64,000 nt of DNA from Escherichia coli. Its GTDB lineage: Bacteria > Pseudomonadota > Gammaproteobacteria > Enterobacterales > Enterobacteriaceae. The DNA lies in the NCBI RefSeq assembly GCF_002854065.1, contig NZ_CP024147.1; one strand, 5' to 3'. This document shows positions 193 to 59,711 of this stretch, in pieces (the first letter of the stretch is position 1; each line of letters starts with the position of its first letter). The notes under the pieces are model-generated. The model saw only the letters and a program-made list of their open reading frames with translations. It searched no databases and was not told the origin of the DNA. The translations under genes were made by a program, and so were the position numbers.

Positions 193-290
193 GCCTGATG
201 CGCTACGCTTATCAGGCCTACATGAGTTCTGCAATATATTGAATTTGGAAGAATTTGTAGGCCGGATAAGGCGTTTACGCCGCATCTGGC
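193..290. repeat. REP/BIME extragenic palindromes
   Basis: gcctgatgcgctacgcttatcaggcctac and inverted partner gtaggccggataaggcgtttacgccgcatc; the same motif recurs elsewhere in the window. Confidence 0.7.
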
Positions 291-18979: not shown

Positions 18980-19342
18980 TTAGATCTCCGGGAACGTGGA
19001 ATAGTCAGTCTTTTTCTCGGCGGCGAGTTGGTGCTCCAGCCGGGAAATTCGGTCAGAAAGTGCGGCGATTTCCGGGTCAGTCGCTTTCTCCTGCGACGCA
19101 ACATGTGACTGCATACCCCAGCCACGCTCCGGTTGATAGAGCGTCGCCCAGATCCACAGAAACGGCCAGATAACATGCAGAGTAAACAGGCTCACCCAGC
19201 CCGCCGTATGAATAGCGTCGGCATGGGGATGGTTGCGCTTTTTGGCAATCAGATAAGGGATGTCATGTATCGCGATGATTCCATAAAAAATCACCAGAAA
19301 GACGAAGATCAGCACTCCCAACGCGAAATAGTTTAGAAACAT
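18980..19342 (-). CDS. yibI: small inner-membrane protein DUF3302 (paralog of yiaW)
   Basis: 120-aa [26 protein letters not shown]...; 2 bp upstream of yibH. Confidence 0.85.
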
Positions 19343-19558
19343 ATTTGCCTCGGATTCACGTTTATCAGTGTTGTTTTTTGGCTGGCAGCCAGAAGGGAGT
19401 CAGGCTGATATTTTGACAATAATCCGGGTTCGCGATTCTCGCCATAACACCAAAGAATAATTTTTAGAGGTGATGAGTTGCTTAGTTACATAACGATTGT
19501 ATGACGAAGGCATAACATGCTGTAGATCACATCAGGTGAACGCCGTAAGAAAATATCT

Positions 19559-19735
19559 TGTGATTCAGATCACAAAGATTCAACAAACCATCAAAACAAA
19601 AATGTGACATTAGTCACATTTAAATGCCATTTTTAGCGAAAATCGCCGCCTTGTTGCTTTTTTACACAAGCGTTTTGTGATGAACATCACGTCAATTACC
19701 TCTCTACCCCCTATATTTATGTGATTGATATCACA
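19559..19735. promoter_or_regulatory. mtlA promoter region with an array of CRP-type palindromes
   Basis: TGTGATTCAGATCACA (19559-19574), TGTGACATTAGTCACA (19603-19618), TGTGATGAACATCACG (19676-19691), TGTGATTGATATCACA (19720-19735), all TGTGA-N6-TCACA. Confidence 0.65.
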
Positions 19736-19878
19736 CAAAAGGCCGTCGACTGGACAGTTAACCGATTCAGTGCCAGATTTCGCAGTATCTACAAGGTCCG
19801 GCTACCTCTGCCGCCACATTAACAAAAAACCTCGGGCTTCCAGCCTGCGCGACAGCAAACATAAGAAGGGGTGTTTTT

Positions 19879-21792
19879 ATGTCATCCGATATTAAGATCA
19901 AAGTGCAAAGCTTTGGTCGTTTCCTCAGCAACATGGTGATGCCAAATATCGGCGCGTTTATCGCGTGGGGTATCATCACCGCGTTATTTATTCCAACAGG
20001 GTGGTTACCGAACGAGACGCTGGCGAAGCTGGTCGGGCCGATGATCACTTATCTCCTGCCGCTGCTGATCGGTTATACCGGTGGTAAGCTGGTAGGCGGC
20101 GAACGTGGCGGCGTAGTCGGTGCCATCACCACCATGGGCGTTATCGTCGGCGCAGACATGCCGATGTTCCTCGGTTCTATGATTGCAGGTCCGCTGGGCG
20201 GCTGGTGCATTAAGCACTTCGACCGCTGGGTAGACGGTAAGATCAAATCCGGTTTTGAGATGCTGGTGAATAACTTCTCCGCAGGCATCATCGGGATGAT
20301 CCTCGCCATTCTGGCATTTCTCGGCATTGGCCCGATTGTTGAAGCCCTGTCCAAAATGCTGGCTGCGGGCGTTAACTTCATGGTTGTCCATGACATGCTG
20401 CCGCTGGCGTCTATCTTTGTTGAACCGGCGAAAATCCTGTTCCTCAACAACGCCATTAACCACGGTATCTTCTCGCCGCTGGGTATTCAGCAGTCCCATG
20501 AACTGGGTAAATCCATATTCTTCCTGATTGAAGCTAACCCAGGTCCGGGTATGGGCGTGCTGCTGGCGTACATGTTCTTTGGTCGTGGTAGCGCTAAACA
20601 GTCTGCGGGCGGTGCGGCAATTATCCACTTCCTGGGTGGTATCCACGAAATTTACTTCCCGTATGTGTTGATGAATCCGCGTCTGATCCTGGCCGTTATC
20701 CTCGGCGGTATGACTGGCGTGTTCACGCTGACTATCCTGGGCGGTGGTCTGGTTTCTCCGGCATCTCCGGGTTCTATCCTTGCTGTACTGGCGATGACAC
20801 CAAAAGGTGCTTATTTCGCTAACATCGCGGGTGTGTGTGCGGCGATGGCTGTCTCCTTTGTTGTCTCTGCTATTTTGCTGAAAACCAGCAAAGTGAAAGA
20901 AGAAGATGATATTGAAGCAGCAACTCGTCGTATGCAGGACATGAAAGCTGAGTCTAAAGGTGCATCTCCGCTGTCTGCGGGCGATGTGACTAACGACCTG
21001 AGCCACGTACGTAAAATCATCGTTGCCTGTGACGCCGGTATGGGTTCAAGTGCGATGGGCGCAGGCGTGCTGCGTAAGAAAATTCAGGATGCAGGTCTGT
21101 CGCAGATTTCGGTCACTAACAGTGCGATCAACAACCTGCCGCCAGATGTGGACCTCGTCATCACTCACCGTGACCTGACCGAACGCGCTATGCGCCAGGT
21201 TCCGCAGGCACAGCATATTTCGCTGACCAACTTCCTCGACAGCGGCCTGTACACCAGCCTGACCGAACGTCTGGTTGCTGCCCAGCGCCATACTGAAAAC
21301 GAAGTGAAAGTGAAAGACAGTCTGAAAGACAGCTTTGACGATTCCAGTGCTAACCTGTTCAAACTGGGCGCGGAGAACATCTTCCTCGGTCGCAAAGCGG
21401 CCACCAAAGAAGAAGCGATTCGTTTTGCTGGCGAGCAGCTGGTGAAAGGCGGTTACGTTGAGCCGGAATACGTTCAGGCGATGCTGGATCGTGAAAAACT
21501 GACCCCGACTTATCTGGGTGAGTCTATCGCGGTGCCACACGGTACGGTTGAAGCGAAAGATCGCGTACTGAAAACGGGCGTGGTGTTCTGCCAGTACCCG
21601 GAAGGCGTGCGCTTCGGTGAAGAAGAAGATGACATTGCCCGTCTGGTGATTGGTATTGCTGCCCGTAACAACGAGCACATTCAGGTTATCACCAGCCTGA
21701 CCAATGCACTGGATGATGAGTCCGTCATCGAGCGTCTGGCACACACCACCAGCGTGGATGAAGTGCTGGAACTGCTGGCAGGTCATAAGTAA
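19879..21792 (+). CDS. mtlA: PTS mannitol-specific EIICBA component
   Basis: 637-aa [34 protein letters not shown]..., membrane EIIC followed by EIIB and EIIA domains. Confidence 0.95.
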
Positions 21793-21796
21793 TCCA

Positions 21797-21995
<199 letters not shown>

Positions 21996-22021
21996 TAAAA
22001 ACATTGATGAAGGTTAATACT

Positions 22022-23170
22022 ATGAAAGCATTACATTTTGGCGCAGGTAATATCGGTCGTGGCTTTATCGGTAAACTGCTGGCAGACGCGGGTATACAAC
22101 TGACGTTTGCCGATGTCAATCAGGTGGTACTTGATGCCCTGAATGCCCGTCATAGCTATCAGGTTCATGTGGTAGGTGAAACCGAGCAGGTAGATACCGT
22201 TTCCGGCGTCAATGCTGTCAGCAGCATTGGTGATGATGTCGTTGATCTCATTGCTCAGGTTGATTTAGTCACTACCGCCGTTGGCCCGGTAGTGCTGGAA
22301 CGTATTGCTCCGGCTATCGCCAAAGGGCTGGTGAAACGTAAAGAACAAGGTAATGAATCTCCGCTGAACATCATCGCTTGTGAAAACATGGTCCGCGGCA
22401 CCACGCAACTGAAAGGCCATGTGATGAACGCCCTGCCGGAAGACGCCAAAGCGTGGGTAGAAGAACACGTTGGCTTTGTCGATTCCGCCGTTGACCGCAT
22501 CGTACCGCCTTCGGCTTCGGCAACTAACGATCCGCTGGAAGTGACGGTAGAAACCTTCAGCGAATGGATTGTCGATAAAACTCAGTTCAAAGGCGCACTG
22601 CCGAACATCCCAGGCATGGAGTTAACCGACAACCTGATGGCATTTGTCGAACGTAAACTCTTCACCCTGAACACGGGTCATGCTATAACCGCGTACCTCG
22701 GAAAACTGGCCGGTCATCAGACCATTCGTGACGCTATTCTCGACGAGAAAATCCGCGCGGTGGTAAAAGGTGCGATGGAAGAAAGTGGCGCGGTACTGAT
22801 CAAGCGTTACGGCTTTGACGCTGACAAGCATGCGGCGTACATCCAGAAAATCCTCGGTCGTTTTGAGAACCCGTATCTGAAAGATGATGTAGAGCGCGTA
22901 GGCCGTCAGCCGCTGCGTAAACTGAGCGCAGGCGACCGTCTGATCAAGCCACTGCTCGGTACGCTGGAATACGGCCTCCCGTACAAAAATCTGATTCAGG
23001 GAATTGCCGCTGCAATGCACTTCCGCAGTGAAGATGATCCACAGGCTCAGGAACTGGCAGCACTGATCGCCGACAAAGGTCCGCAGGCGTCGCTGGCACA
23101 GATTTCCGGGCTTGATGCCAACAGCGAGGTTGTATCTGAGGCGGTAACCGCTTATAAAGCAATGCAATAA
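22022..23170 (+). CDS. mtlD: mannitol-1-phosphate 5-dehydrogenase
   Basis: Start set at ATG 22022 ([20 protein letters not shown]-binding motif), giving 382 aa; the track ORF over-extends upstream through the palindromes. Confidence 0.95.
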
Positions 23171-23757
23171 TGGTGGACCAGGCGCAGGACACCCTGCGCC
23201 CGAATAACAGATTGTCAGATATGCAGGCAACAATGGAACAAACCCAGGCCTTTGAAAACCGTGTGCTTGAGCGTCTGAATGCTGGCAAAACCGTGCGAAG
23301 CTTTCTGATCACCGCCGTCGAGCTCCTGACCGAGGCGGTAAATCTTCTGGTGCTTCAGGTATTCCGCAAAGACGATTACGCGGTGAAATATGCTGTAGAA
23401 CCGTTACTCGACGGCGATGGTCCGCTGGGCGATCTTTCTGTGCGTTTAAAACTCATTTACGGGTTGGGCGTCATTAACCGCCTGGAATACGAAGATGCGG
23501 AGCTGCTGATGGCATTGCGTGAAGAACTAAATCACGACGGCAACGAGTACGCCTTTACCGACGACGAGATCCTTGGACCCTTTGGTGAACTGCACTGCGT
23601 GGCGGCGTTACCACCGCCGCCACAGTTTGAACCAGCAGACTCCAGTTTGTATGCAATGCAAATTCAGCGCTATCAACAGGCTGTGCGATCAACAATGGTC
23701 CTTTCACTGACAGAGCTGATTTCCAAAATCAGCTTAAAAAAAGCCTTTCAAAAGTAA
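23170..23757 (+). CDS. mtlR: mannitol operon repressor
   Basis: 195-aa ORF immediately after mtlD (start overlaps mtlD stop). Confidence 0.9.
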   Translation: MVDQAQDTLRPNNRLSDMQATMEQTQAFENRVLERLNAGKTVRSFLITAVELLTEAVNLLVLQVFRKDDYAVKYAVEPLLDGDGPLGDLSVRLKLIYGLGVINRLEYEDAELLMALREELNHDGNEYAFTDDEILGPFGELHCVAALPPPPQFEPADSSLYAMQIQRYQQAVRSTMVLSLTELISKISLKKAFQK

Positions 23758-59348: not shown

Positions 59349-59360
59349 CACGCTACCGCC
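59349..59360 (-). promoter_or_regulatory. ops element (RfaH recruitment site) in the waaQ operon leader
   Basis: Plus strand CACGCTACCGCC is the reverse complement of GGCGGTAGCGTG, 50 nt upstream of the waaQ start. Confidence 0.75.
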
Positions 59361-59711
59361 CCAGGCTCAACAGCTACCTGAATACTGATACCGCACTGAT
59401 ATTGACGCGCTAGTGTATCACTTCTTTCGCGGCAATCCGACCCGAATGATTTTTAAGCACACTGTTGATTTTCAATAAAGAAATCAATCAAATATAATCA
59501 TTAGCAACCATATTCTTTCACTGTTGCTCTGCGATTTCTTCCTGCACGTACAGCAGAAATCAATGAATCGCATAAAAATACAAAAAAAGTATAGATGTTC
59601 AGCAAGAATTGGCGGGTAAATTGCTATTTAAGTCAAAAACGGGAAAAGTAATGGTAAAGCCACAGCTAAATACATAGAATCCCCAGCACATCCATAAGTC
59701 AGCTATTTACT

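Follow-up and report, generated by a model that had tools for sequence, protein, structure and literature searches.

The DNA analyzed in this study, a 64-kb stretch (64,000 nucleotides) from Escherichia coli that is referred to here as the window, contains a 536-bp intergenic spacer (19343-19878) between yibI and mtlA; the minus strand carries yibH and yibI, and the plus strand mtlA, mtlD, and mtlR (Table 1). The 601 bases around this spacer were 100% identical to those of E. coli O157:H7 strain TR01 and, among 5,426 complete E. coli genomes, were present as a single copy in 5,402, in each case flanked by yibI and mtlA. Elsewhere in the window, a 21-nt palindromic unit, CCCTCTCCACATGGAGA(A/G)GGT, is present twice in the mtlA-mtlD spacer (21793-22021), at 21803-21823 and 21938-21958, and its copies flank the REP-like palindromes GCCTAATGCGCTACGCTTATCAGGCCTACA and GTAGGCCGGATAAGGCGTTTACGCCGCATCCGGC. 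A search at the gathering level of Rfam also gave a JUMPstart element (59349-59387, minus strand, 55 bits) and the ES036/CssrF sRNA (214-256, minus strand, 39.7 bits), both of which are unrelated to the CRP array described below.

Table 1. Features of the yibI-mtlADR region. For the CRP sites, the centre in the window is followed by the published position in parentheses.
Feature	Position	Strand	Description
yibI (DUF3302 membrane protein)	18980-19342	-	Divergent gene
CRP1, weak site CATGCTGTAGATCACA	19516..19531	.	7/10 consensus bases, right half perfect; centre 19523.5 (-262.5)
CRP2, perfect palindrome TGTGATTCAGATCACA	19559..19574	.	0 mismatches; centre 19566.5 (-219.5)
CRP3, perfect palindrome TGTGACATTAGTCACA	19603..19618	.	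Centre 19610.5 (-175.5), 44 bp from CRP2
CRP4, palindrome TGTGATGAACATCACG	19676..19691	.	1 mismatch; centre 19683.5 (-102.5), 73 bp from CRP3
CRP5, perfect palindrome TGTGATTGATATCACA	19720..19735	.	Promoter-proximal; centre 19727.5 (-58.5), 44 bp from CRP4
Predicted -35 hexamer TGGACA	19751..19756	+	From sequence reading; 17 bp before -10; conserved in the 44-sequence MAFFT footprint
Putative Cra (FruR) site	19755..19771	.	Between the -35 and -10 elements; ACTGAATCGGTTAACT on the reverse strand
Predicted extended -10 TGcCAGATT	19771..19779	+	TG and AGA conserved at >=95% in the 44-sequence MAFFT footprint
mtlA 5' untranslated leader	19786..19878	+	From the predicted start, about 19786, to the start codon
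mtlA, mannitol PTS enzyme IICBA	19879..21792	+	Regulated gene; NCBIfam PRK15083, 1323 bits
mtlD, mannitol-1-phosphate 5-dehydrogenase	22022..23170	+	NF002648, 875 bits; K-12 annotation
mtlR, repressor without DNA-binding domain, docks on CRP pairs	23170..23757	+	MltR family, 254 bits

CRP-type palindromes were defined by the pattern TGTGANNNNNNTCACA with at most one mismatch, which was searched for across the whole 64-kb window, and the sites were judged by mismatch counts and conservation. The four matches in the window all lie within the yibI-mtlA spacer, of which they occupy just 19559-19735, thus spanning 177 bp together; CRP2, CRP3, and CRP5 have no mismatches, and CRP4 has one at its last base (right half TCACG), which is variable across orthologues. 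These results bore out a previous sequence-only reading of this DNA, in which four palindromes within about 180 bp, three of them perfect, had been described upstream of mtlA, the downstream gene being identified as mtlA by its NCBIfam match and by its annotation in the 5,402 E. coli genomes. The number of strong sites given in that reading was correct, but the total was not, because a weak fifth site (CRP1), which appears 43 bp upstream of CRP2 when the search is relaxed to three mismatches, had been overlooked. The density, which had been called striking, was also high in our analysis, at 14.9 TGTGA/TCACA half-sites per kb in the spacer versus 1.5 per kb in the window, but the decisive feature turned out to be the spacing, with centre-to-centre distances of 43/44/73/44 bp from CRP1 to CRP5. 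The number of perfect sites expected from the base composition was 0.06 in 64 kb and 0.0006 in 536 bp, and the Poisson probability of at least three perfect sites in the 536-bp region was 3.6e-11.

Five cAMP-CRP sites of the mtl promoter, CRP1-5, have been reported at the positions given in Table 1, with consensus scores of 7/10 for CRP1 and 10/10 for CRP2 and CRP3 (PMC13421365, Lee et al. 2026, Nucleic Acids Research), where they are credited to Ramseier & Saier 1995. Because the centre distances in the window equal the published ones, the four strong sites can be equated with the published CRP2-CRP5 and the weak one with CRP1. The expectation in the sequence-only reading that the mtlA promoter has multiple CRP sites was thus confirmed by the coincidence with CRP2-CRP5, the comparison with the published mtlA promoter sites gave matching 44/73/44 distances, and these sites are assigned to CRP and not solely to another regulator (PMC13421365). 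Knowledge of the array itself dates back to the 1990s, and a mechanism that accounts for its density and spacing was published in 2026. Of the CRP clusters in the E. coli genome, it is the strongest; the yibI-mtlA spacer was the top CRP target in a cross-species analysis by PhyloScan (PMC1794230), and its clones ranked second in abundance in CRP genomic SELEX (PMC3105977).

The mtlADR region of E. coli K-12 is the same locus, with the same flanking genes as in the window (yibI, then mtlA-mtlD-mtlR) and with identical half-sites, site order, and 43/44/73/44 spacing. The spacer in the window differs from that of K-12 MG1655 (L241) by five SNPs and no indels, by which the half-sites are untouched; three of the five are present in N6 cores, two in CRP3 (19610-19613) and one in CRP4 (19686), and the other two near yibI. 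No functional difference between the O157-type and K-12 spacers would be expected from these five SNPs.

With respect to MtlR, the published EMSA analysis indicated that the binding of CRP to the mtl operator requires cAMP and that the operator is shifted neither by MtlR alone, which has no DNA-binding domain, nor by HPr alone (PMC13421365). MtlR produced a supershift only where a complex contained two CRP dimers at a distance of 43-46 bp; the CRP2-3 pair supported it, and the CRP4-5 pair represented the minimal MtlR-docking probe (PMC13421365). At 73 bp (CRP3-4) and at 34 bp (malK operator), no MtlR was recruited until the spacing was changed to 44 bp, at which an arbitrary spacer sequence sufficed, even in the malK operator (PMC13421365). 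Because MtlR does not bind alone and supershifts just the complexes of two CRP dimers with this spacing, it is the pairs of CRP sites that constitute the MtlR operator. In the window, the docking spacing of 43-46 bp was found for CRP1-2 (43 bp), CRP2-3 (44 bp), and CRP4-5 (44 bp), and CRP3-4 (73 bp) is non-docking. The proposal in the sequence-only reading that MtlR might use some of the sites as its operators was therefore right about the effect, although the mechanism is an indirect one, as MtlR docks via the CRP pairs. In an older model of the mtl operator, the palindromes or overlapping dyads would be classical operators touched directly by MtlR, which is in line with the role of MtlR as the genetic repressor of the operon and with the NCBIfam family name, which is still "transcriptional regulator". 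Such direct contact is, however, very unlikely, given that MtlR has no domain for binding DNA and does not shift the operator alone, that the 44-bp spacing works with an arbitrary spacer, and that the spacer sequence is not conserved across genera. The spacers between the CRP sites have also been described as sharing no sequence similarity (PMC13421365).

The pairs of CRP sites as the operator are further addressed by the published mutations. Chromosomal mutation of CRP2, CRP4, or CRP5 abolished the expression, CRP1 was dispensable and normally unoccupied, and CRP docking/supershift and repression were both lost by the R167E and L178A mutations of MtlR (PMC13421365). The MtlR translation from the window carries R167 and L178, the published CRP-contact residues. 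In addition, EII-Mtl in its dephosphorylated form sequesters MtlR at the membrane, with HPr as a competitor (PMC13421365).

The conservation of the array was evaluated in a footprint of 76 non-redundant representatives (<95% identical), which could be stacked without gaps because the spacing is invariant. The information was concentrated, at a near-maximal level, in the TGTGA/TCACA half-sites of CRP2-5, and CRP1 was poorly conserved; the half-sites of CRP2-5 were also conserved in a 44-sequence MAFFT footprint. The N6 cores and the spacers were near random in the 76-representative footprint, except for the AAAATAT and AACAAAC blocks, the T-tract before CRP4, and the core promoter. Where half-sites are retained and N6 cores and spacers are variable, as here, the pattern is characteristic of sites to which proteins bind and not of a family of repeats. 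Palindromic repeat families do exist in the genome, as exemplified by the REP-like units in the mtlA-mtlD spacer, and the same pattern arises from tandem repeats in some non-CRP phyla, so that the cluster might be considered to have accumulated by chance or to be a palindromic element of a mobile or repetitive kind. However, with a probability of about 4e-11 for three perfect sites, with no further copies within the 64-kb window, and with the conservation limited to the half-sites, the chance of such an origin is negligible.

The two conserved blocks outside the half-sites are AAAATAT (19550-19556), just upstream of CRP2, and AACAAAC (19582-19588), in the CRP2-CRP3 spacer, both of which were almost as conserved as the half-sites in the 76 arrays. 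A minus-strand divergent promoter composed of these blocks was considered and rejected because the hexamer spacings do not fit, and IHF or CytR sites in the spacers were also rejected, the consensus matches being weak and the conservation poor. There is also a 32-nt direct repeat (72% identical, 176 bp apart) at 19477-19508 and 19653-19684, one copy of which lies upstream of CRP1 and the other in the left half of CRP4 and its left flank. That a CRP module was duplicated long ago was rejected as its origin, the upstream copy having no credible site, and the repeat may be due to chance or be the trace of an old duplication.

The spacing was then compared across genomes in two surveys. In the first, which was pattern-selected, 100,044 species, each represented by one genome, were searched for a pair of perfect palindromes with a spacing of 43-46 bp, and at least 120 stretches were obtained. 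Among the matches listed, 66 of 120 adjoin mtlA, yibI, or mtlR homologues and belong to Enterobacterales, Pasteurellaceae, and Orbaceae, and the distance in these mtl-linked stretches was 44 bp in 63 and 43 bp in the other 3, 45 and 46 bp being absent. The other 54 among the matches listed were distributed evenly over 43-46 bp and were mostly from non-CRP phyla or tandem repeats; four of these 54 probably represent mtl promoters that are truncated at the edge of the locus. In the Enterobacterales loci among the matches listed, the next gap was 73 bp (72 and 74 bp in one locus each) and the one after it 44 bp, both of which are parts of the array that were not required by the survey pattern.

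The second survey was independent of the promoter, as metagenome contigs were chosen by a degenerate DNA version of an invariant 14-residue MtlA peptide (at least 120 matches), and the gaps in the test for four sites were left free over 38-50, 66-80, and 38-50 bp. Among the matches listed, the four-site array was present in 58 of the 61 distinct upstream regions for which MtlA was at least 75% identical to that of E. coli, and 54 of these 58 arrays were exactly 44/73/44, the other four being off by 1-2 bp in one gap. Two loci with MtlA at 67% identity, also among the matches listed, still had 45/73/43-44, and no such array was found among the matches listed where MtlA was less than 60% identical and mtlR was not nearby.

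The presence of the 43-46-bp pair was also compared with that of downstream mtlR. Among the matches listed, both were present in 36 cases, mtlR alone in 2, the pair alone in none, and neither in 12, and one of the two exceptions with mtlR alone was an artefact of incomplete sequence. The paired sites thus tracked mtlR across genomes in this motif-selected sample of related sequences among the matches listed; the survey counts, like the Fisher test, have descriptive value only, because the sequences are phylogenetically related. The 44/73/44 geometry is nearly invariant across Enterobacterales and beyond and travels with mtlR, which provides evolutionary support for the published spacing model.

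It may also be considered that the array controls, additionally or mainly, the divergent yibI, which shares the spacer, both genes being downstream of CRP-bound DNA. Both divergent promoters are often regulated by CRP in such cases, according to the genomic SELEX paper (PMC3105977), and the region is filed under yibI in some PhyloScan runs (PMC1794230). However, the yibI start codon is 181 bp from CRP1 and 225 bp from CRP2, the yibI-proximal 170 bp are poorly conserved, and, of the 88 orthologous arrays for which 1,300 bp or more of upstream sequence was available, 36 had no yibI homologue upstream. Where yibI was present, its distance to CRP2 ranged from 113 to 345 bp, whereas the distance from the array to mtlA was fixed within about 3 bp, CRP5 being 199-205 bp from the mtlA coding motif in nearly all arrays. 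Because the distance to mtlA is kept and yibI is often missing or at a variable distance, the array belongs to mtlA, and a role in the control of yibI is unlikely.

The core promoter of mtlA was located with reference to the transcription start, which was back-calculated from the CRP5 centre (19727.5 + 58.5) to be at about 19786 with an uncertainty of 1-2 nt, and the predicted -35 and -10 positions fit this start. In the leader, the Shine-Dalgarno sequence AAGAAGGGG was conserved in the 44-sequence MAFFT footprint. CRP is known to be competent for activation at the class I positions of about -61.5, -72, -82, -93, and -103 and at the class II position of -41.5. With the start being back-calculated, CRP4 at -102.5 is near the class I position of -103, and CRP5 at -58.5 is 3 bp off -61.5. 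The mtlA promoter was not called in a consensus promoter scan of the spacer, probably because CAGATT matches TATAAT at 3 of 6 positions, and such a weak -10 match would fit an activator-dependent promoter. The lone promoter called by the scanner (minus strand, 19885-19858, across the mtlA start codon) was within chance expectation, and its two terminators were CRP3's own palindrome and a weak stem at 19743-19757; all three were rejected as artefacts. The Rfam search of the spacer and leader gave no RNA family.

Two other putative elements overlap the core promoter. The putative Cra site matches CTGAATC, which we take to be the Cra consensus half-site, and the GATTCAGT block at this site was moderately conserved. 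According to a ChIP-exo study, Cra acts repressively at mtlA against the activation by CRP (PMC5888115). A sixth CRP-like palindrome, AGTGCCAGATTTCGCA, is present at 19769-19784 over the -10/start region, 49 bp downstream of CRP5 with its centre at about -9.5, and has three mismatches in the window and two in Enterobacter-type promoters; the loci concerned include L005, L062, L099, L103, L105, and others. It probably reflects just the conservation of the -10 region, its conserved bases being better explained by the extended -10 element, and an autoregulatory site is a possible reading.

Taken together, the region is almost certainly the control region of mtlADR, the mannitol operon of E. coli, with CRP as the activator and MtlR as the repressor via the CRP pairs. 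The present sequences show the sites together with their spacing, conservation, and linkage to mtlA and mtlR; CRP binding, MtlR docking, and the sequestration of MtlR are taken from the literature, and the exact start site, the -35 and -10 elements, and the Cra site are predictions. CRP occupancy and MtlR docking at this particular locus would accordingly be as described in PMC13421365 and older work. In the proposed mechanism, the five cAMP-CRP sites, one weak (CRP1) and four strong (CRP2-5), would operate upstream of a weak sigma-70 promoter, and CRP dimers would occupy CRP2-5 at high cAMP and activate transcription, with CRP5 at -58.5 probably touching RNA polymerase and the upstream sites, which are also required, probably having an architectural role. 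An MtlR dimer would bridge two CRP dimers at sites 43-46 bp apart and block the CRP-dependent activation, for which CRP2-3 and CRP4-5 at 44 bp would be the docking pairs and CRP1-2 at 43 bp a fallback. Mannitol transport would lead to the dephosphorylation of EII-Mtl (MtlA), by which MtlR would be pulled to the membrane and the repression relieved, and dephosphorylated HPr would, on glucose, compete for MtlR and restore the repression.

The requirement for the far-upstream sites CRP2-4 was left without explanation in the published account, in which phase-dependent remote activation was speculated (PMC13421365), and the invariance of the 73-bp gap is not discussed in its main text. In our comparison, this non-docking gap was as invariant in length as the 44-bp gaps, with the spacer sequence drifting meanwhile, and CRP3 and CRP4 would face the same side because 73 bp corresponds to about 7 helical turns. 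The invariance points to a constraint on the phase between the two CRP pairs; it agrees with the published speculation on remote activation that depends on phase, and it suggests one scaffold formed by the four sites. What is added here to the published account is small, namely the near invariance of the 73-bp gap. We consider it possible, at somewhat less than an even chance, that the four strong sites form one rigid, mirror-symmetric 44/73/44 scaffold and not two independent MtlR-docking pairs. If this is the case, four CRP dimers, alone or together with two MtlR dimers, would form a higher-order assembly needed for the activation from -220 and/or full repression, which might be a wrapped or looped nucleoprotein particle, and the AAAATAT and AACAAAC blocks might be its bending or contact elements. 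The finding itself is of small weight, and the known array serves as a good positive control for the reading of a sequence alone.

Several known systems share features with the mtl array. CytR is a LacI-family regulator that also contacts DNA, and the tandem CRP sites at which it operates are separated by about 52-53 bp, with octamer repeats located between them. In the CytR-CRP systems (deoP2, cdd, udp, and similar promoters), the repressor is held between two DNA-bound CRP dimers, as is MtlR, a parallel drawn in PMC13421365, and CRP is turned by protein-protein contacts from an activator into a part of the repression complex, as at mtl. MtlR differs from CytR in that it has no DNA-binding domain and needs the spacing of 43-46 bp. 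A CytR-CRP operator was rejected for the window, where the spacings are 43/44/73/44 and the sole GTTGC-like block (19653-19659) is weakly conserved, and no convincing conserved octamer of the CytR type was found in the mtl spacers in the 76-representative footprint. At malEp-malKp, where MalT is the co-activator, several CRP sites in one divergent spacer act architecturally, as at mtl. The malK sites differ in being 34 bp apart, with MtlR recruited just after re-spacing to 44 bp (PMC13421365). The remote activation of papBA by CRP from -215, which has been offered as a precedent for CRP2-4 of mtl (PMC13421365), differs in involving a single remote site with Lrp and phase variation and no four-site array. 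The Mlc-EIIGlc system resembles that of MtlR in that the repressor is taken off the DNA by the dephosphorylated PTS transporter at the membrane (PMC13421365), but Mlc, unlike MtlR, binds DNA directly through its own domain.

Some other arrangements were noted in the first survey. The Pasteurellaceae mtlA promoters among the matches listed (L014, L049, L067, L068, L095, L096, L106, and L111) have a single perfect pair at 44 or 43 bp near the gene, often with a third perfect site 40-41 bp further upstream, unlike the enterobacterial 44/73/44. In two marine gammaproteobacteria (L023, 2578-2636; L042, 498-556), a perfect palindrome pair 43 bp apart is located by homologous giant adhesin-like open reading frames, which could represent a CRP/Vfr-type paired site unrelated to mtl, and the adjacent large open reading frames in L042 could be secretion genes. 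A gammaproteobacterial MAG (L091, 1150-1210) has identical perfect palindromes 45 bp apart beside the gene of a putative regulator that would belong to the Crp/Fnr family, judging from its N-terminal sequence, and autoregulation is possible. In MAGs of Tannerella/Prevotellaceae (L045-L047, L061, and L087), there are tandem 23-bp units, each with TGTGA-N6-TCACA, such as TGTGACGGGAATCACAACGGCGT, and many of the non-mtl matches at 46 bp result from such tandem arrays.
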